A stretch of DNA of 64,000 nucleotides, from NCBI GenBank assembly GCA_965372795.1, contig CBDVDR010000009.1, forward strand, positions 58,599 through 122,598, written 5' to 3'. The notes beneath the pieces were generated by a model. It saw only the letters and a program-made list of their open reading frames with translations. It did no database searches and was not told where the DNA came from. Made by a program: the position numbers and the translations under genes. Each line of letters begins with the position of its first letter. Within the stretch, counting starts at the first letter, position 1. This document shows positions 2,232-24,904 of this stretch, piece after piece. Source of the stretch: an uncultured bacterium (GTDB lineage Bacteria > Zixibacteria > MSB-5A5 > GN15 > FEB-12).

Positions 2232-4529
2232 TTAATAATTATTATATAAATCTTCAATCGCATCAACAATCTTAGCAACGGTCGGTAAACAGGCAGCATC
2301 TCCATCCATTCCATAAGCGACTCTGGAATCAATGGCGGTAACCAGTTTAACCGGAGCTTCAAGATCAAACAATCCCTCACCACTGGTTATAATTCCTGAA
2401 ATTGTATTTGCAGAACCGCCATTAAAGCGATCCTCAGTTACCACAAGAACCTTGCCGCACTCTTTGGCAGTGTTTAGAATTGTTTCCTCGTCAATCGGTT
2501 TCAACGTCCGTAAATCGATAATACGTACATTGATACCTTTCTCACGAGCCAGTTCGGCAGCTTTTCTGCTCATTTGAACGGTTGTGCCATAGGTGATGAG
2601 TCCTATATCTGAAGCTTCTTCATTGTAAACTTTGGCTACTCCAAAAGGTATTAATTCATCAATATCAGGCAGTGCGGTTTCGATTGGAACCCCTTCCCAA
2701 TCCCGACGATTGTATAAGGCTACTGATTCGCAGAATAAAACCGGATCATCACATGCCCAGGCTGTTTTTAATAATCCAGCCGCATCATAGGCATTTGATG
2801 GAACAGCGATTAAAAGACTTGGAATGTTCATCCAGGTTCCCAGATTGCTCTCACTGTGCCAGAATGCCCCAGCACCCTGTTTGTAACCGCCATATGTGGT
2901 TCTGATCACCATCGGCATGGTCCATTGCCCATTGGACCGCTGATAAGTAGTACAGATTCGATCTTTGAGCACCTGAAAAGCGGGAGACATATAATCTAAA
3001 AATTGAATTTCAGGAATCGGACGCCGACCCTGATAACAATGTCCGGTTGCTCGACCCAAAATACCGGCTTCATCCAATGGAGTATTAAAACACCGATCGT
3101 TACCAAATTCACGCTGTAAATTTTTCGAAACCAGAAATACTCCGCCCTTGCCTTTGAGATTTTTCTGTTTTTCAACTTCCTGAATCATGTGACCCGAGAA
3201 ATCGGCGACATCTTCACCAAACAAAAGAACATCATCAGTCATTTGAAACAGATCAAACATCGTGTAATTGACTGCAAATCGCATTGTCATTGGACCGATA
3301 TCTTCAGGCAATTCAGGAGTTTGGTAATAGCCCTTTTCATGATATTCTTTAAATTTCTTTTTTCTATCTACTTTGGAAGCCTGACGATATTTTTTCCAGG
3401 TTTCTTTGGTCTTTTCAAAATCGTAAGCGTAGACCTTGTCCAGAATATGCTCTTTAGTTTTTGGTACAAAAGTCTCAACAGCTTTTATTGATAACTTGGT
3501 AATTTCTTTATCAAGTTCATCCCACATTGTACTAATCTCTTTGGGAGTAATGATGCCTTCTTCTATTAGAGTATTGGCAGTCTTTAAGACACAATCATTA
3601 TAAGTATGCCAATCCTGTTCTACCGGATCCATATAAAATGATTGATCATCCGATCCCGAGTGTGATCCCTCGCGGGTAACTTTAATATTTGCCAGAACCG
3701 GACCCTTGCCTGTTCGAGAATACTCAACGGCTTCTTTAACTTTTGCAAGAGAGTCTTTGATATCGGTACCGTCAATCTGCATGATTTTTAAACCAAAGCG
3801 CTGGAATCCTTCAAACGGCGTAGTTGGATCGCCCTCAGGGAACTGTTCTTCGACAGAAACAGAAATTGCCCAGCCACAGTTATAAATTGCAAATATATTA
3901 GGTGTTTTTTCAAAAGCTGAATAGAAAACCGCTCTTGCGAATTCAGGCGACGACGAAGAACCTTCACCAATACAACACAGTGCGATGGCATCACTCTTAT
4001 AGGCTCCACCAGGTATTGGTGCATTTTCTGAGATAGGAACCTGACATTTAATTGCAGCACCTAATCCGGCAGCTTCAAGAGCATGGGAACCGGTAGGAGA
4101 AGCCTGAGGAAGGATGCTGAACTGGGGATAAGCCGGATGAGCCGGGATTTGCTGCCCGCCAATCTGTGATCGGGAATCGCCAATGGCTTCAAGCATTTTT
4201 TCCCACAAGGAAGATCCTCGATGTAGATCAAATGCTTTATTTCTATAATATCCTATAAACGGATCGGTTACTCTTGTTTCTTCAGCTAAGGCAACATCGA
4301 TAAGTTCTTTACCGCCGCAGCCAATGAAAAACCGGTTGTAACCTTTTCTGAGCAATAGCTTTTCTTCACGCTCCACCCGTCTGGCTTTGAGCATGGTATA
4401 TAACATGCCCTTAAGTTCTTTAGGAGTTTTCCCTGAATATTCTTTGAGGGGCTTATTTTCGTCTTTTACCTTAGGCTTAGCCTCGCCCTCGTACTGAGTA
4501 AGTTTATCAATTAAAGTAAGCAGTTCCAA
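2232..4529 (-). CDS. 2-oxoacid dehydrogenase E1 alpha/beta fusion (TPP-dependent)
   Basis: GEGSSS...N TPP motif, GSHSGSDD loop, beta part GEDV...GGVF...FNTPLDEAGI...EIQFLDY; TTG start with GGAGG RBS. Confidence 0.9.
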   Translation of the reverse strand: MELLTLIDKLTQYEGEAKPKVKDENKPLKEYSGKTPKELKGMLYTMLKARRVEREEKLLLRKGYNRFFIGCGGKELIDVALAEETRVTDPFIGYYRNKAFDLHRGSSLWEKMLEAIGDSRSQIGGQQIPAHPAYPQFSILPQASPTGSHALEAAGLGAAIKCQVPISENAPIPGGAYKSDAIALCCIGEGSSSSPEFARAVFYSAFEKTPNIFAIYNCGWAISVSVEEQFPEGDPTTPFEGFQRFGLKIMQIDGTDIKDSLAKVKEAVEYSRTGKGPVLANIKVTREGSHSGSDDQSFYMDPVEQDWHTYNDCVLKTANTLIEEGIITPKEISTMWDELDKEITKLSIKAVETFVPKTKEHILDKVYAYDFEKTKETWKKYRQASKVDRKKKFKEYHEKGYYQTPELPEDIGPMTMRFAVNYTMFDLFQMTDDVLLFGEDVADFSGHMIQEVEKQKNLKGKGGVFLVSKNLQREFGNDRCFNTPLDEAGILGRATGHCYQGRRPIPEIQFLDYMSPAFQVLKDRICTTYQRSNGQWTMPMVIRTTYGGYKQGAGAFWHSESNLGTWMNIPSLLIAVPSNAYDAAGLLKTAWACDDPVLFCESVALYNRRDWEGVPIETALPDIDELIPFGVAKVYNEEASDIGLITYGTTVQMSRKAAELAREKGINVRIIDLRTLKPIDEETILNTAKECGKVLVVTEDRFNGGSANTISGIITSGEGLFDLEAPVKLVTAIDSRVAYGMDGDAACLPTVAKIVDAIEDLYNNY

Positions 4530-4766
4530 TTTAATCCTCCAATATTTCCATATTTTTTATATCTTATCTCTGGTATACAACAAACTTGTTTTGATTTTGC
4601 TCCCCAAAAAAACATTTTTTTATGAATTTGCAAAAGAATTATTAATAAAATTGAAAAAAATGTACCTTAGGGACATTTTCAGTCCTCGATTGATTTAACT
4701 TGAATTAAATCCTTAATTTAAATATTATATTTCTAGTACAAAATGATATAAAGAAAGGAAGCATAA

Positions 4767-6791
4767 ATGCCCTCAAATAGCAATAAAACAAAGACTAAGA
4801 GGACAAAAAGATATATCACAGAAGTGGACCTTTATAAGTTAAAAATTCCAACTTCAGTAGCGATTTCACCTTCTGAGAACAAAATCGCCTTTACTATTGA
4901 TCGGATGGATAAAAAAGAGAATAAATACTTCTCCAATATATTCATACTCGATATATCAACTGGATTAAGCCAGCAGTATACCCATGGTAATTATAATGAC
5001 CATACCCCGGTTTGGTCGCCGGATGGTGATAAATTAGCCTTTTTATCATCCCGGGACAAAAAAAGCTGTATTTACATCATTTCTGTATCCGGTGGGTCTG
5101 AAAAGAAGGTTTTTGATTGTGAGGGAGCTATTGGAAGCCTCCAATGGACTCCCGATGGGAAACAGTTCCTTATAAATATGAGATATAATGATTCTCATTT
5201 CATTGAAGATAGCAAGAAGAAAACAGAACCTCCCGTCTTCCGTCATGTTACCAGATTATTTTTCAGATTAGATGCGGTCGGATACCTGCCAAAAGACACT
5301 TTCCAAATTTACTCATTGGATATTGAAACCGGAAATACGAGAGTTATTACAAAAGGTAAAAGAGACAATATCTCTCCGAATCTTTCTTCTGACGGTAAAT
5401 GGATTACTTATGTTTCCAATCGCTCCAAAGATCCTGATCTGAATACAATGAGGGACGATCTTTTCATTATCCCGTTTAAAGGTGGAAAAGAAAAACTTAT
5501 CCCCACTCCTGCCGGTCCTGTTGCCGTTCCTATTTTCTCTCCCGATTCTAAACAGATAGCCTATCTCGGGCACGACAACCCGAATGATGCCTGGGGTGTA
5601 ACAAATATTCATATCTGGAAAGTCGGATTAAACGGTAACCCTAAAGCAAAAAATCTCATGCCTAAATTTGACCGCATGGCTTTGGATCAATCAATTGCCG
5701 ATATGGGTGATGTTCACGGTCCCGCCCCTATTTTCTGGTCAAAAGATAATAAACGTATTTATTTCGTTTCATCGGATACCGGTGCCACAAATTTATATTA
5801 TGTCCCTCATTCGGGTGGAAAACCGACCGGAATTTTCAAAGGAAAAAACCATATAAAAGCCTTCTCTGTAAACGGTAAAACAAAAGTTACCGCTTTAATT
5901 TATGCTGACATTAATAATCCCGGTGATATCGTCACCTGCCCAACTCAATACAAAGGTGAAAAGAAAGCGGTTCAACATACCGATTTAAACCGTTTTCTGT
6001 CTTCAGAAATTAAATTGGGTAAAACCAAAGATCTATTTTTCAAATCATTTGATGGCACCGAAGTTCAAGGCTGGCTGCTTTTACCTCCGAATTTTAACCC
6101 AAATAAGAAGTATCCATCAATCCTCCAGATTCATGGCGGACCAAGAACTCAATATGCTCATTCTTTTTTCCATGAAATGCAATTTCTCGCTGCCAAAGGG
6201 TATGTTGTTTTCTATACTAATCCAAGGGGAGGTTCCGGTCGCGGGGAAACCTGGGCCGATGCAATCGCCGGCGGATGGGGTGATCTTGATTATCAGGACT
6301 GCATGGCAGCCGCTGACTATATGGAAAATCTTAAATTTGTCCACCCTAAAAAAATGGGTGTCACCGGCGGATCATACGGCGGCTATATGACAAACTGGAT
6401 AATCGGACATACCAACCGTTTTGCAGGAGCAGTTACCCAGCGTTCGGTTGTAGATTTAAAATCTTTTGTCGGTTCCTCAGATATCGGGTTTGATCTTCCC
6501 CGAGAATTCGATGGCTCGCCCTGGACCAACAAAGAGAACTATGAACATCGCTCTCCGATTACTTACTTCAAAAAAGTTAAAACTCCGGTTCTAATCATTC
6601 ACAGTGAACAGGATTTAAGATGCCACATTGAACAGGCTGATCAGATGTTCGTCATGCTTAAATCACTTGGTAAAAAAGTTGAGATGGTTCGGTTCCCCGA
6701 AGAACCGCACGGGCTTTCAAGGCATGGACGTCCTGACCGCAGAGTTGCAAGACTTGAGTGGATCAATAAATGGTTCAAGAAATATTTATAA
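4767..6791 (+). CDS. S9 family peptidase (dipeptidyl/acylaminoacyl peptidase)
   Basis: PD40-like WSPDG propeller repeats, HGGP, GGSYGG nucleophile, EQDLRC and EEPHG triad residues. Confidence 0.93.
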   Translation: MPSNSNKTKTKRTKRYITEVDLYKLKIPTSVAISPSENKIAFTIDRMDKKENKYFSNIFILDISTGLSQQYTHGNYNDHTPVWSPDGDKLAFLSSRDKKSCIYIISVSGGSEKKVFDCEGAIGSLQWTPDGKQFLINMRYNDSHFIEDSKKKTEPPVFRHVTRLFFRLDAVGYLPKDTFQIYSLDIETGNTRVITKGKRDNISPNLSSDGKWITYVSNRSKDPDLNTMRDDLFIIPFKGGKEKLIPTPAGPVAVPIFSPDSKQIAYLGHDNPNDAWGVTNIHIWKVGLNGNPKAKNLMPKFDRMALDQSIADMGDVHGPAPIFWSKDNKRIYFVSSDTGATNLYYVPHSGGKPTGIFKGKNHIKAFSVNGKTKVTALIYADINNPGDIVTCPTQYKGEKKAVQHTDLNRFLSSEIKLGKTKDLFFKSFDGTEVQGWLLLPPNFNPNKKYPSILQIHGGPRTQYAHSFFHEMQFLAAKGYVVFYTNPRGGSGRGETWADAIAGGWGDLDYQDCMAAADYMENLKFVHPKKMGVTGGSYGGYMTNWIIGHTNRFAGAVTQRSVVDLKSFVGSSDIGFDLPREFDGSPWTNKENYEHRSPITYFKKVKTPVLIIHSEQDLRCHIEQADQMFVMLKSLGKKVEMVRFPEEPHGLSRHGRPDRRVARLEWINKWFKKYL

Positions 6792-20163: not shown

Positions 20164-21084
20164 ATGATGACGTCTTCAAAAATAATAATAGTTGGCGCCG
20201 GAGTCATGGGACAAGGGCTTGCTGAAGCAGTCGCCTCTTCCGGGACAGAAGTTTTATTAATAGATAAAACTACCAAACTTGCAGAAAAAGGTATCAAAGG
20301 AGTCATTGAATCAATCGACCGCGAGATTGAACGATGGGGATTAACTGAAGCTGATAAAAGAGCAATTCTTGCCCGAATCCACCCTTCGTCCGATCTATCG
20401 CTTGCTGAAGATGCAGAGATTGTCATTGAAGCTATCCCAGAAGTTTTTGAAGCAAAGAAAGATTTATTTATAAAACTTGATACTTTCTGTAATCCTAATA
20501 CACTCTTGATAACAAACTCCGGAACTCTTTCTATCTCGGAAATCGCCGCCACAACTAATCGTCCTGAAAAAATAATCGGCATGCATTTTCTAAATCCGGT
20601 AACAAAAATCCCGCTGGTTGAAATTGTTAAAGGTCTTAAAACCGACGATGAAACATTCCGAAAAGCTGTCACCTTTGCGGAACTGCTTGATAAAAAATGG
20701 ATCACCGTAAATGAATATCCCGGCTATGTGACAACCCGTATAATTGTCCCTCTTCTTAATGAAGCGATGCATGTCTTAATGGAAGGCGTAGCTTCAGCAG
20801 AAGATATTGACGAAGCGATGAAACTTGGTTTTGGATTTAATGTCGGACCGCTAACCCTGGCTGATATGATGGGTTTGGATGTGGTTATGTCATGGATGGA
20901 AAATCTCCTTCACGAGCTTTCCGAACATAAATACAACCCCTGTCCCCTGCTTCGAAAAATGGTTCGCGCCGGACATCTTGGCGTCAAATCCGGATTAGGA
21001 TTTTTTGAATACGACAACGAGGGCAACAAAGTTGGATTAAATAATCACAAAGAAAATTCTATTCCATCAGGAGTTCCTCAATGA
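20164..21084 (+). CDS. hbd: 3-hydroxybutyryl-CoA dehydrogenase
   Basis: GAGVMGQG, EAIPE, GMHFLNPV, GPLTLADMMGLD, LGVKSGLGF. Confidence 0.88.
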   Translation: MMTSSKIIIVGAGVMGQGLAEAVASSGTEVLLIDKTTKLAEKGIKGVIESIDREIERWGLTEADKRAILARIHPSSDLSLAEDAEIVIEAIPEVFEAKKDLFIKLDTFCNPNTLLITNSGTLSISEIAATTNRPEKIIGMHFLNPVTKIPLVEIVKGLKTDDETFRKAVTFAELLDKKWITVNEYPGYVTTRIIVPLLNEAMHVLMEGVASAEDIDEAMKLGFGFNVGPLTLADMMGLDVVMSWMENLLHELSEHKYNPCPLLRKMVRAGHLGVKSGLGFFEYDNEGNKVGLNNHKENSIPSGVPQ

Positions 21085-22289
21085 AAATTCTGGTTATCAA
21101 TTGCGGGTCTTCATCAGTCAAATACCAGCTAATAGATACTGTTAATGAATTATCCCTCGCCAAAGGAACAGTATCCCGAATAGGGATGTCGGCTTCGGTT
21201 CTCTCGCATAAACCGCATGATCGCGAAGAAGTAAAAGTTTCTGGCGAAATTTTGGATCATATTGTTGCTATTGAATATGTGATTTCGATTTTACTGTCAA
21301 AAAATCATGGTGTGATTGAAGATAAATCGGAAATCAATGCCATCGGTCACCGGGTTGTTCATGGCGGTGAAAAATTTACTGATTCTGTGTTGGTAACTCA
21401 GGATTTAATGTCTGAAATCCGCAATCTTATCGAACTGGCACCGCTGCACAACCCCCATAATATAAGAGGTATCAACGCCTGTATGAAAACTCTTCCGGGT
21501 GTTCCCCATGTTGCGGTTTTCGATACTGCTTTCCACCATAAGATGCCACCGCACGCTTATATTTATGGCATCCCTTATATTTTATATAAACGATATGGAA
21601 TCCGGCGTTATGGTTTTCACGGTACCTCACATAAATATGTAAGCGAACAAGCTTCTAAGATGCTTGGCAAACCACTCGAAGAATTAAAACTGATTACCTG
21701 TCATCTTGGAAATGGCGCTTCAATCACCGCTATTGATAAAGGCATATCGATTGATACGTCAATGGGATTCACTCCCCTTGAAGGATTGTTAATGGGCACT
21801 CGTTCAGGTGATTTGGATCCGGCAATTATTCTTCATATAATGGCTCGCGAAGAATTGTCTCTCCATGAAGCCAATACTCTTTTAAACAAACATTCAGGAC
21901 TGGCTGGAATTTCAGGTTTATCTTCGGATATGAGAGAAGTTGTCGAGGGTGCTAATGATAATAACGCCAATGCAAAACTTGCCCTTGAAATCTTTTGTTA
22001 TCGCTTGAAAAAATATATCGCCTCTTATATTGCGGCTATGAATGGTCTTGATGCATTGGTCTTCACAGCCGGGGTTGGTGAAAACTCGCCTGAAGTTCGT
22101 TCATTAACTTGTAATGAGATGGACTTTTTGGGAATATCGATTGATGATGCTAAGAATAATTCTGCAAAAGCGATTGAGGCTGATATAACTGCTGAAAACG
22201 CTCGGGTTCGCACTCTGGTAATTCCAACTAATGAAGAACTGGTAATTGCCCGTGACACCAAACGCATCGTAGAAGAATCAAATAAATAA
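21081..22289 (+). CDS. ackA: Acetate kinase
   Basis: INCGSSS, GHRVVHGG, APLHNP, RYGFHGTSH, IPTNEE. Confidence 0.96.
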   Translation: MKILVINCGSSSVKYQLIDTVNELSLAKGTVSRIGMSASVLSHKPHDREEVKVSGEILDHIVAIEYVISILLSKNHGVIEDKSEINAIGHRVVHGGEKFTDSVLVTQDLMSEIRNLIELAPLHNPHNIRGINACMKTLPGVPHVAVFDTAFHHKMPPHAYIYGIPYILYKRYGIRRYGFHGTSHKYVSEQASKMLGKPLEELKLITCHLGNGASITAIDKGISIDTSMGFTPLEGLLMGTRSGDLDPAIILHIMAREELSLHEANTLLNKHSGLAGISGLSSDMREVVEGANDNNANAKLALEIFCYRLKKYIASYIAAMNGLDALVFTAGVGENSPEVRSLTCNEMDFLGISIDDAKNNSAKAIEADITAENARVRTLVIPTNEELVIARDTKRIVEESNK

Positions 22290-22364: not shown

Positions 22365-22610
22365 TTAAATTATCTTTTCAAGCATAATTGTCCCGATTGA
22401 AACAATAATACTTAAGTCTGAATAATATTTGTACTTGGCTCCCTTTTCAGTATAAGCTTTGCATATCCCATCGTATCCGATATACCAATGCTTTGGATTA
22501 TACCAAAGTAACGACTTACCAAAGTTTGTCATATGTTTTCGGGCAATAAACCTAAAGACCAAACCATTGCTTAGTAATAAAATTATAAGAGCTTGTATAA
22601 CTTTTTCCAT
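22365..22610 (-). CDS. 81-aa two-TM membrane protein, paralog 2 (putative immunity protein)
   Basis: GGAGG RBS before ATG 22610; 47/81 residues identical to 22855-23100 by manual ungapped alignment. Confidence 0.75.
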   Translation of the reverse strand: MEKVIQALIILLLSNGLVFRFIARKHMTNFGKSLLWYNPKHWYIGYDGICKAYTEKGAKYKYYSDLSIIVSIGTIMLEKII

Positions 22611-22676
22611 CGTTCCCTCCTGCAATTTAAACGACTTCGAAAAACCCTGAGTTGGTTATGTTTTTTAGATACTTAT

Positions 22677-22705
22677 AAAGTATGGAATTATTCAAAACCT
22701 GTCAA
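22677..22705 (-). promoter_or_regulatory. Sigma70 promoter for paralog 2
   Basis: TTGACA-17-TACTTT. Confidence 0.6.
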
Positions 22706-22771
22706 CAATAAATTTATACTATTGTCCATAATTGTCAGAAAAAATGCCAGTGTAGAATATATACTCTTTCT

Positions 22772-22805
22772 AATAAACAAGGCGGGTATAAAATACCCAC
22801 CTTGT
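22772..22805 (-). terminator. Intrinsic terminator after paralog 1
   Basis: Minus strand ACAAGGTGGGTA/TACCCGCCTTGT stem (one G-U pair) followed by TTATT. Confidence 0.6.
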
Positions 22806-22854
22806 CTTTGTTGCCAATATTTCATGCCGACACATCACCCCTCGGCAATCTTAT

Positions 22855-23100
22855 CTACACAACTTTCTCAAGCAGCATCAACCCTATCGCCATCAGAAAA
22901 AACAACTTTGAACGATACTTAAGTTTAGCACCTTCAGCAGTGTACATTTTACATACATCATTATAACCGGTATACCAGTTTTTTGGATTGTACCACTTAA
23001 GCGACTTTCCAAACTGAGTCAATTGCTTACCAGCTTTAAATCGAAAAAATAATGCCACACTTAAGGATACGATCAAAAGTGCTTGTATAATTTTTTCCAT
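22855..23100 (-). CDS. 81-aa two-TM membrane protein, paralog 1 (putative immunity protein)
   Basis: AGGAGG RBS; 13 nt downstream of the lipoprotein gene; shared FGKSLxWYNPKxWYxGY motif. Confidence 0.8.
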   Translation of the reverse strand: MEKIIQALLIVSLSVALFFRFKAGKQLTQFGKSLKWYNPKNWYTGYNDVCKMYTAEGAKLKYRSKLFFLMAIGLMLLEKVV

Positions 23101-23113
23101 TTTCCCTCCTGTG

Positions 23114-24052
23114 TTAATGATCCCACAGATCGAAAAGATCCATGATCTTGCAAGTTATTGCCCCAGCCGCACAAGGACCACATATCGGGTTAACCCCTTC
23201 CGGACATTTTACTGCTGTACAAATTTCCATTATTGTACAAAGCGTACTTGCCCAATCAGGTCTCTCGCCCAATTGCTGGGTTGTGTCGGCATAGCTATTA
23301 TAGAACCAATCGCCAAAATCCTGATTTACAATTAAATCAGTTACGATTTCACCATTGGTATTATTATGCAAAGTGTTATCAGATTCATAGAAATCATGAA
23401 AATCTACCAAAGTTGCCAATATTTGAGAATCTAACCCACTATACTCGGTTATATCAAAACTGCTCCTGTTACTCGATAGTAACTCCTGCAAAGCCCTGAT
23501 TGTGTCAGAATCGGTTGTATCAAATACAAAAGTATCAACCGATCCATTAATATTGTAAATTTCAGTGCGGGTTGTTGAGGATATTATTCTCTGAATATCC
23601 ATTGAATCAGAGGTTGTTTTCTCATTCAGCCATAAAATTTCAGAATTACTGGTATCGACCGACACATCATACTCCCAAAGAAGATTTCCGCTTGTATCTT
23701 TCAATGTTGTTGTATGTCCGAAAATGTTTGCGTTCTCATAATAATCGGTAATAAATCGATACTCGGTAGTATCATTCGAGTCGTAAACAGCCATGTAATA
23801 AGTTACTTTGGCATTCGTCGTATCAATTATTACTGAGACTATCGTTACTGAAAAGTCAGTTATTGAAAATGTATAAGGCAGCGGACTCGGCGGGTCTGGC
23901 AAACCTGGAAATGTATCTATTGGACCAAGAGCTATCCCCGTCCCCAAATTACTATCAACAACTTTCTTATCTAATGAATCACAACCGATTAGATAAACAT
24001 AAACGGTAACCATTAATAAACTAACTATTATGAAAAGCATTCTTTTTTTCAT
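23114..24052 (-). CDS. Lipoprotein with acidic body and Cys-rich C-terminal domain (likely start 24052)
   Basis: MKKRMLFIIVSLLMVTVYVYLIGC lipobox; C-terminus CTIMEICTAVKCPEGVNPICGPCAAGAITC (6 Cys). Confidence 0.75.
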   Translation of the reverse strand: MKKRMLFIIVSLLMVTVYVYLIGCDSLDKKVVDSNLGTGIALGPIDTFPGLPDPPSPLPYTFSITDFSVTIVSVIIDTTNAKVTYYMAVYDSNDTTEYRFITDYYENANIFGHTTTLKDTSGNLLWEYDVSVDTSNSEILWLNEKTTSDSMDIQRIISSTTRTEIYNINGSVDTFVFDTTDSDTIRALQELLSSNRSSFDITEYSGLDSQILATLVDFHDFYESDNTLHNNTNGEIVTDLIVNQDFGDWFYNSYADTTQQLGERPDWASTLCTIMEICTAVKCPEGVNPICGPCAAGAITCKIMDLFDLWDH

Positions 24053-24281
24053 AATGATTTCCTTTCTCAATTGATTTTTTAAAATTGTTTTTTTTGCGTA
24101 AAATCGATTGAGAATTACTACGTATAACTCATCCCGTACCTCCTTCTCATAAATATTATTTCCCCGAGACATCCCTGGTGATGTTGACGTAATTAATATT
24201 GTTACTTTTAGAGTAGTGCCCTTTGCGTTTTTCTAAAAAATGCTAATAACTCTAAAAATGCGTGTTAACCCTAGTGTTCTT

Positions 24282-24310
24282 ATTTTATATAATCATCTTA
24301 TTTCTGTCAA
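24282..24310 (-). promoter_or_regulatory. Sigma70 promoter for the Cys-rich lipoprotein
   Basis: TTGACA-17-TAAAAT. Confidence 0.65.
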
Positions 24311-24445: not shown

Positions 24446-24904
24446 TTACGTAAAAGCTATCATTTTGGGGTGCACTAATCGCTCAAAATCATCGTAAGAA
24501 ATCCTAACCAGCTCAGTATGTGCTCCGGCATTAAAGGCAATCTCTTCATCATCTGCCAACCGGCGAGCAACCAGTACTTTCAACCCATACAGGTTGCCAA
24601 AAGGAGGCATGGCACCGGGGGCGCATCCCGGAAATACATTCTTAAATTCATCTTCAGTTGCAAGTTCAACCGAATCAGCACCAAGTTCCTTTTTTAAACT
24701 AGCTAATTTCACTCGATGAGATGATGGTAAAACTGTCATAGTTAATATCCCGTTGATTTTAACCATTACAATTTTAGCCAGTTCTTTCGCCGGAACATGA
24801 GCTGAGGCTGCAATTTCATGGGCTGTATATGCCGGAGAATGGTTGATTGTTACATATTTGACATGGTTGTCATCCAGGAAGTCCTTCAATTTTTTGGTAG
24901 GCAT
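24446..24904 (-). CDS. YbaK/EbsC family aminoacyl-tRNA deacylase
   Basis: ELAKIVMV, CAPGAMPPFG, FNAGAHTE. Confidence 0.9.
   Translation of the reverse strand: MPTKKLKDFLDDNHVKYVTINHSPAYTAHEIAASAHVPAKELAKIVMVKINGILTMTVLPSSHRVKLASLKKELGADSVELATEDEFKNVFPGCAPGAMPPFGNLYGLKVLVARRLADDEEIAFNAGAHTELVRISYDDFERLVHPKMIAFT

Follow-up and report, generated by a model that had tools for sequence, protein, structure and literature searches.

A candidate lipoprotein toxin family with a cysteine-laddered hairpin tip, and its small membrane partner proteins, in Zixibacteria

Introduction

By its logic, the closest known counterpart of the locus analyzed here would be the SitA/SitI system of myxobacteria. As far as the account in PMC5562445 goes, SitA proteins have a lipobox and a C-terminal active part, their genes are followed directly by the immunity gene, and their distribution is polymorphic and accessory; the SitA C-termini are of the nuclease type and act in the cytoplasm, SitI is soluble (with a SUKH-family example), delivery needs TraAB outer-membrane exchange and, in that account, the SitA family is placed in the Myxococcales only (PMC5562445). 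The locus in question lies in a 64,000-nucleotide (nt) stretch of DNA from an uncultured Zixibacteria bacterium (assembly GCA_965372795.1, contig CBDVDR010000009.1; the whole stretch is referred to as the window). It consists of a lipoprotein gene with a hydrophobic, Cys-rich C-terminal tip (P0001), a small gene for a basic protein with two transmembrane (TM) segments that follows it (P0002), and a paralog of the small gene (P0003). An N-terminal lipobox, a presumed active C-terminus, a partner gene directly downstream and an accessory spread are shared with SitA/SitI; a hydrophobic Cys-laddered hairpin tip and a partner that is a two-TM membrane protein set the locus apart by description. No nuclease or SUKH family is matched by the three window proteins, by 60 relatives of the lipoprotein or by 40 relatives of the small protein. 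We read the locus, with the case standing about evenly for and against, as specifying a secreted lipoprotein toxin of an undescribed family, the hairpin of which would attack the cytoplasmic membrane from the periplasm, with the proteins of ~80 residues as its putative intramembrane immunity factors.

Several toxins that act at membranes share parts of this design. Pore-forming colicins insert a hydrophobic helical hairpin, part of a ten-helix bundle, in the membrane, and are countered by small integral proteins of the inner membrane. The predicted hairpin and a candidate small inner-membrane immunity protein are the likeness; there are only four to six helices here, and no receptor or translocation domains are recognized. 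Glycocins consist of two antiparallel helices joined by intramolecular disulfides, and are small secreted Gram-positive peptides with dedicated exporters and a glycosyltransferase; gallocin A is reportedly a disulfide-stapled helical-hairpin bacteriocin. The tip resembles both in its two antiparallel helices with (here predicted) intramolecular Cys pairing, but no dedicated exporter or glycosyltransferase is found near the genes of this locus. Inner-membrane immunity proteins are remarked on in the account of the Caulobacter Cdz system, which presents CdzC and CdzD as hydrophobic, small-residue-rich, cell-associated, proposed pore formers whose export depends on a type I system and which aggregate via GxxxG zippers, and CdzI as a small inner-membrane immunity protein with three predicted TM segments (PMC5380434). 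A hydrophobic toxin candidate with a small membrane partner is common to the two systems; the lipid anchor, the Cys ladder and the β-sheet body found here are missing from the Cdz proteins. TspA of Staphylococcus aureus, a Gram-positive bacterium, is described as a membrane-depolarizing type VII secretion substrate, with membrane immunity genes (TsaI) in strings of non-identical paralogs (PMC9484751). Compared by description only, the present locus is similar in having relatives with strings of membrane-protein paralogs next to a candidate membrane toxin.

The lipoprotein and its laddered tip

The lipoprotein is acidic (45 Asp and Glu versus 16 Lys and Arg; 37 Thr and 32 Asp) and has 7 Cys; its last 47 residues form a six-Cys stretch (C272, C278, C283, C291, C294 and C301). 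It has a Sec/lipoprotein signal that lacks a twin arginine, and the lipobox L-I-G-C24 (MKKRMLFIIVSLLMVTVYVYLIGC) conforms to the lipoprotein pattern [LVI][ASTVI][GAS]C. C24 is nearly invariant in a 60-sequence alignment, and a lipobox-like motif is present in 83 of 103 full-length representatives of the family. The protein is predicted from its sequence to be exported via Sec and lipid-anchored at Cys24.

An exhaustive HMMER search returned 121 relatives at E ≤ 0.001, with 53 of them at E ≤ 1e-10, each counted as the representative of a 50%-identity cluster. Nearly all are 280-330 residues long, and those bearing any name are listed as 'hypothetical protein' of Candidatus Zixiibacteriota. Neither Pfam nor NCBIfam has a family for any of the three window proteins, and Pfam has none for 60 lipoprotein relatives or for 40 small-protein relatives. 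No description of the family was found in the literature on polymorphic lipoprotein toxins, on Zixibacteria toxins, and on hairpin, glycine-zipper and halocin bacteriocins. The lipoprotein and the small protein are two families undescribed so far. Conserved in the lipoprotein family are the lipobox, E144/D149, E164-x-Y-x2-N, the motif FxxFY...NxLxxNxDG, and the tip pattern C-x5-C-x3-K-C ... N-P-x-C-x2-C-x6-C; mean hydropathy is 1.27 for the tip versus -0.37 for the body.

An AlphaFold2 model based on the 60-sequence alignment (mean predicted local distance difference test score, pLDDT, 85.9; predicted template modeling score, pTM, 0.74) has a low-confidence linker at residues 28-59, after the lipid anchor, then the β-sheet body, and helices at residues 182-194, 206-221, 232-242, 244-257, 266-282 and 291-307. 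The C-terminal 135 residues folded alone yield the same helices, with the last hairpin at pLDDT 91-97; the pTM of that isolated domain is only 0.47, an indication that the helices probably depend on the β-sheet for support. Known structures offer no clear relative: with neither the whole model nor the C-terminal domain does Foldseek find a PDB match at E ≤ 0.001; the best VIA-align (wide) matches, which are a lipovitellin sheet, porin-like folds and JlpA (Z 6.3, whole model) and generic hairpins (Z 6.1, C-terminal domain), are at that tool's stated noise level; no colicin is among the matches of either program; and a PDB sequence search with the C-domain profile reaches a best E of 0.72. The nearest ESM Atlas clusters are labeled 'Lipoprotein', at a score of 0.83, below the 0.9 level of a lead.

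The tip cysteines are conserved by pairs. The tip could be aligned in 118 of the 121 representatives. All 118 keep C272 and C301, and 117 keep C283 and C291 (the one exception lacks both); of C278 and C294, 84 sequences have both, 32 have neither and 2 have only one. The paired positions add up to 573, 572 and 574, which fits an antiparallel ladder 272-301/278-294/283-291. Two or three nested Cys pairs are accordingly predicted to join the helices of the hairpin; on the joint testimony of model and covariation, these pairs are real contacts. A metal-cluster reading of the Cys was also considered; it is ruled out by the Sec-type signal and by the arrangement of the four invariant Cys, one pair at each end of the hairpin.

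Linkage to a small membrane protein

The lipoprotein profile finds 43 of the 285 genomes of the phylum (30 of the 198 high-quality ones; the same 285-genome set served the class-level and phylum-level searches). It was not found in a genome of the same genus (G001), in which the neighbor of ack is a different, 129-residue membrane protein. The cassette is accessory. In polymorphic toxin systems the immunity gene is expected directly downstream, and custom hidden Markov models (HMMs) identify a same-strand small-gene homolog in that position in 28 of the 30 lipoprotein loci that were fetched; the two exceptions are at a contig edge (L030) and a frameshifted copy followed by only a weak small open reading frame (ORF; L035). 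Four of the 28 loci seeded the small-protein HMM, which reduces the independent finds to 24 of 26. The two genes overlap or are separated by less than 80 nt in 24 of the 28; the other gaps are 111, 118, 437 and 476 nt. Two or three small genes are present in 11 of the 30 loci, and in L020 and L029 the lipoprotein gene is broken and the small gene intact. A search for related loci with 7 close sequences yielded two genome loci and three metagenome loci (L045-L047), and in all of the latter a small two-TM ORF lies directly downstream of the lipoprotein gene.

Two loci in metagenome-assembled genomes (MAGs) labeled 'uncultured Gammaproteobacteria' (L039, 3671-4619; L040, 3440-4412) specify shorter lipoproteins, of 233 and 238 residues, with a very similar tip (C.IMDLF.LW), and have two-TM ORFs of 63 and 71 residues downstream, without a small-protein HMM match at E ≤ 0.01. 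The tip therefore exists on another body and, should the MAG labels be correct, may occur beyond the phylum. It is also carried by variant lipoproteins in L047, L055 and L062. L047 has in addition (2962-3981), directly upstream of a truncated family member, a 265-residue lipoprotein with an unrelated body and a Gly/Cys-rich hydrophobic end finishing in LAQLW; a 68-residue two-TM ORF comes next, and the two look like a second, different tip-plus-small-gene pair. Prediction of a complex between tip residues 225-312 and P0002, both entered as alignments, gave scores of 0.14 and 0.12, relative to a mark of 0.32, and is counted neither way.

Small two-TM proteins and Cys-bearing outer-membrane lipoproteins are also found in phage lysis cassettes, and the pair could be imagined as a phage-derived lysis or exclusion cassette, with a holin-like small protein and a spanin-like or exclusion lipoprotein. 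That origin is very improbable: PHROGs has no match for the lipoprotein at E < 0.09 and none at all for the small genes, no endolysin or other phage gene is present in the window flanks or the sampled loci, and the lipoprotein is far larger than spanins. The sampled loci are surrounded by housekeeping genes.

The wider small-protein family

P0002 has 13 Lys and Arg versus 4 Asp and Glu, and two hydrophobic segments; the loop between TM segments averages 7.0 Lys and Arg versus 1.8 Asp and Glu over the family, and is therefore probably cytoplasmic, leaving only the TM helices to face the periplasm. A word-indexed protein search with P0002 alone returns only P0002 itself, and the profile of the small family finds 18 proteins that are unnamed or called 'hypothetical protein'. 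In the phylum set the small family is present in 109 of 285 genomes, versus 43 for the lipoprotein. It accompanies the lipoprotein in 40 of these 43; the remaining three are partial lipoprotein matches or contig ends. The source genome (G000) has six copies, two in the window and four solo (two on contig C7 and one each on C2 and C17).

Twenty small-gene loci were sampled from genomes lacking a lipoprotein match. One has a divergent, 312-residue, four-Cys member of the lipoprotein family directly upstream of the small gene (L063), one has decayed lipoprotein fragments (L056), two specify lipoproteins of other kinds that end in hydrophobic, Cys/Gly-rich stretches (L055 and L062), and one has a weak lipoprotein match 1.4 kb off (L064); the remainder comprises three loci at contig edges and about twelve solo small genes. 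Because some of these loci hold divergent or decayed lipoproteins or contig ends, the 69 genomes that appear to have only the small gene are an upper bound.

A Pfam search of the neighbors of solo small genes identified no common partner. An unannotated protein of ~145-200 residues is specified upstream of the small gene in four loci (L057, 3273-3824; L065, 3311-3820; L070, 2346-2939; L006, 3361-3798); these proteins have C-termini that look alike by eye, lipobox-like starts in at least L057 and L065, and no Pfam match, and may be another recurrent partner of the small gene. In the source genome, the solo paralog on C2 (L052) lies ~370 nt downstream of a gene (3385-4956) for a 523-residue lipoprotein that contains many CxxCH-like motifs and resembles a multiheme cytochrome. 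The solo paralog on C17 (L053, 2581-5233) follows genes for a 573-residue protein, which we take from its sequence to be a KAP-type P-loop NTPase, and a 186-residue membrane protein, in surroundings that look like a defense island.

This last context is what a self-directed module, of the toxin/antitoxin-like or abortive-infection kind, might be expected to have: its hairpin would permeabilize the cell's own membrane once the small protein is lost or titrated, for example through phage attack or loss of the cassette. Linkage, asymmetry of the two families and patchy distribution fit such a module equally well. That it is the correct explanation is nevertheless improbable, since the cassette proteins have no match in PADLOC (or PHROGs), the sampled loci lie amid housekeeping genes, and antidote genes dispersed as orphans through the genome are better suited to protection against the toxins of others.

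Orphan tip cassettes

Orphan C-terminal fragments with immunity genes of their own are a further mark of polymorphic toxins. Tip fragments without a signal, each with its own small gene, are found in two genomes, two of them in G271 and one in G284. In G271 (L041) the full gene lies at 1908-2798 and its small gene at 2811-3050. An unrelated gene comes next, then a tip fragment at 4203-4412 that has neither start nor signal and is paired with a small gene at 4421-4660, and then a second tip fragment, in an open frame running to 4943, with a small gene that ends at 5193. The DNA from about residue 209 of the main gene through its small gene is 68% identical, over 523 nt, to the last of these modules. 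In G284 (L042) the full gene and its small gene are followed by a single orphan tip, at 3741-4076, and by another three small genes. The orphan fragments start near the conserved NxDG motif. Two other genomes of the same family, G277 and G281, have tip-only matches with an internal stop, each adjoining a small-gene match (these are profile matches only).

The greater abundance of the small family and the orphan cassettes fit a toxin/immunity system. Judged by sequence comparison, the conserved pair, the extra small genes, the wider small family and the orphan tips together form the pattern typical of a toxin that has orphan as well as cognate immunity genes.

Weighing the toxin reading

A number of observations weigh against this reading. 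The first concerns divergence. Averaged over 30 pairs, identity is 0.31 in the tip, 0.24 in the small protein, 0.19 in the pre-tip segment and 0.18 in the body: across the family it is the tip that is best conserved, unlike the swapped tips of classical polymorphic toxins. Divergence of the small protein tracks that of body and tip alike (partial r 0.21 each in a Mantel-type test, which does not discriminate between the two), so that there is no sign of a specific covariation of tip and immunity candidate. Second, the orphan cassettes were seen in one family of the phylum (f20) only. Third, a search of longer proteins with the tip profile finds only family members of ~300 residues and no fusion to a delivery domain (weak evidence), and searches with Pfam, NCBIfam, PADLOC, PHROGs, Foldseek, VIA-align and the PDB recover no toxin, pore former or immunity protein of known family or fold. 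Fourth, the conserved loop of the small proteins, NPxxWxPxWK..FTPxG, suggests from its sequence that these proteins have a function of their own.

The fifth is the matter of disulfides. In the source genome (98.65% complete) DsbB, VKOR, DsbA and Thioredoxin_4 are all without a match, and a DsbD/CcdA-type reductive module is present. Oxidases are scarce in the phylum at large (of its 285 genomes, 13 have VKOR and 1 has DsbB), and VKOR accompanies the lipoprotein only in G113 among its 43 genomes. The 60 ORFs of the source genome that combine a lipobox with a Shine-Dalgarno sequence show no bias to even numbers of Cys (25 even, 22 odd and 13 with none, by a crude count; 243/256 in the cytoplasmic-like control for Cys parity). 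Presumed disulfides without a known catalyst are a difficulty for the toxin reading. The Cys could conceivably constitute a redox latch, with the hairpin reduced and tame in the Dsb-less producer, oxidized outside or in the target to a membrane-breaching form, and countered inside the membrane by two-TM proteins spread through the phylum as orphan antidotes; we regard this elaboration, which would make the cassette a new class of weapon between bacteria, as doubtful.

Many of the same facts would suit a non-toxic accessory envelope complex, in which the lipoprotein, held by its lipid and by its hairpin docked on the small protein, is a tether, a scaffold or a redox/thiol sensor, and in which the small protein has its own function, with the lipoprotein as an optional partner. 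The tip and the small-protein loop would then be the most conserved parts for good reason, a small family much wider than the lipoprotein and often solo would be natural, invariant Cys pairs without DsbB or VKOR could serve as a redox switch, and the low-confidence linker after the lipid anchor is tether-like. What such a complex leaves unexplained are the signal-less tips that each have their own small gene, the strings of two or three small genes, the decay of the lipoprotein with the small gene kept (L020, L029 and L056), and the local peaks of divergence in the tip and the small gene of L046/L047; the small protein also lacks an output domain. We judge this explanation, the chief alternative to a toxin, somewhat unlikely.

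The divergence peaks in question come from the closest pair of loci, L046 and L047, the proteins of which are 73% identical in the body, 86% in the pre-tip segment, 56% in the tip and 50% in the small protein; at the DNA level identity is 80-96% in the body, 40-47% at hairpin helix 1 and 50-60% over the 3'-terminal half of the small gene. The faster tip among closest pairs is a matter of this one pair. In a same-genus pair (G166/G045) the body is 49% and the tip 30% identical, and the small genes are rearranged.

The toxin/immunity layout had already been proposed in the original prediction, made from the letters of this DNA by a model that ran no database searches. What survives of that proposal is the linkage (28 of 30 loci), the extra small genes (11 of 30) and, as new support, the orphan tips. 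What finds no support is a constant N-terminus with variable tips (the tip is the most conserved part family-wide, 0.31 versus 0.18, one close pair apart) and the likeness to halocin C8. As presented in the source, ProC8, the halocin C8 precursor, has a twin-arginine translocation (Tat) signal and an N-terminal part that is the immunity protein, and the family is represented by the models TIGR04449 (halocin_C8_dom) and PF22862 (Hac8_like_N) (bioRxiv 10.64898/2026.07.27.741052). A ~300-residue precursor that ends in a hydrophobic, Cys-rich part is indeed common to both; unlike ProC8, the lipoprotein has no Tat signal and its conserved partner, the would-be immunity protein, is the product of a separate downstream gene. 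Neither halocin model is matched by P0001 at E ≤ 1, by 60 family members (Pfam) or by 36 C-terminal domains (NCBIfam). The original prediction had also named small genes unlinked from the lipoprotein as telling against a toxin. Unlinked genes do occur, four of the six copies in the source genome being solo; since these look like orphan immunity genes, and are read as such, the toxin/immunity idea is not refuted by them.

A proposed mechanism

If the lipoprotein is a toxin, it would be exported via Sec and anchored by lipid at Cys24, its β-sheet body carrying the helical C-terminal module. The hairpin would be the active part, damaging the cytoplasmic membrane of unprotected cells from the periplasmic side. 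The 81-residue proteins would span the inner membrane, the basic loop on its cytoplasmic side, and would neutralize the hairpin by helix-helix contact inside the membrane, in the producer during transit of the lipoprotein as well as in attacked neighbors. The paralog in the window and the four solo genes elsewhere in the genome would then serve as additional immunity genes directed at the variants of relatives. Candidate routes of delivery are surface exposure, vesicles, membrane exchange and cleavage of the tip.

The locus in the window

The coordinates of the three genes, all on the minus strand, and of their features are collected in Table 1. The original description of this region was confirmed on re-measurement. 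The acidic, Thr/Asp-rich lipoprotein with its hydrophobic six-Cys end is as described, the quoted tip matching letter for letter; the coordinates and composition of the basic two-TM gene that follows agree, with a 13-nt gap (23101-23113) after the lipoprotein stop; the paralog is again 47/81 identical to P0002 (E 6e-36); and the failure to recognize either family is matched by that of Pfam and NCBIfam. The terminator placed after the first small gene is likewise there, as a terminator-like hairpin: the stem is followed by UUUAUU, the 121-nt stretch that contains it has a folding z of -5.45 (0 of 200 shuffles fold as well), and a consensus scan also picks the core, at 22784-22798. The promoter assigned to the paralog fared less well. 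TTGACA-17-TACTTT is where it was said to be, and is the single occurrence in the window (at least one match turns up in 5 of 100 shuffles), but it is weak evidence because its -10 hexamer fails the criteria of the consensus scan; the match upstream of the lipoprotein gene, TTGACA-17-TAAAAT, is the better of the two. AGGAGGG precedes the ATG of both small genes.

The lipoprotein gene has an alternative 352-residue frame starting at ATG 24172, and the public gene call (P0004, 352 residues) places its start there, 40 codons upstream of the signal peptide (24053-24172). ATG 24052 is preferred because AAGGAAA lies 8 nt upstream of it and the N-termini of homologs align there. The flanking genes are presumably acetate kinase (ack; 21081-22289, plus strand) and a YbaK-like gene (24446-24904), names that we take from the appearance of their sequences.

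Table 1. Genes and features of the lipoprotein/small-protein locus (positions in the window)
Feature	Position	Strand	Basis
Lipoprotein gene P0001, candidate toxin, 312 residues	23114..24052	-	ORF and 121 relatives
Small gene 1 (P0002), basic two-TM protein, 81 residues, candidate cognate immunity protein	22855..23100	-	
Paralog P0003, two-TM protein, 81 residues, candidate extra (orphan) immunity protein	22365..22610	-	
Intrinsic-terminator-like hairpin, 15-bp stem, 3' of small gene 1	22775..22807	-	
Promoter-like site TTGACA-17-TACTTT before paralog, weak -10	22677..22705	-	
Sigma-70-like match TTGACA-17-TAAAAT upstream of lipoprotein gene	24282..24310	-	Consensus match only, 11/12 positions
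Signal peptide with lipobox LIGC, residues 1-24	23981..24052	-	Sequence and alignment
Ten-strand antiparallel β-sheet body, residues 60-177	23522..23875	-	AlphaFold2, blocks of pLDDT 91-98
Four helices, residues 182-257, including conserved FxxFY...NxLxxNxDG motif	23282..23509	-	
Cys-laddered hydrophobic α-hairpin tip, residues 266-312	23117..23257	-	Model, Cys covariation and hydropathy

Implications

The paired Cys of an exported protein, in a phylum largely without DsbB or VKOR, raise the question of where and when the exported proteins of anaerobes form disulfides. If the toxin reading is correct, the locus would provide the founding members of two families, a Cys-laddered hairpin membrane toxin and an intramembrane immunity protein of 80 residues. 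It would also be a further instance of toxin delivery by a lipoprotein, which has so far been documented experimentally mainly for myxobacterial SitA, and would offer a first handle on bacterial antagonism in the Zixibacteria, a phylum without cultured model organisms.

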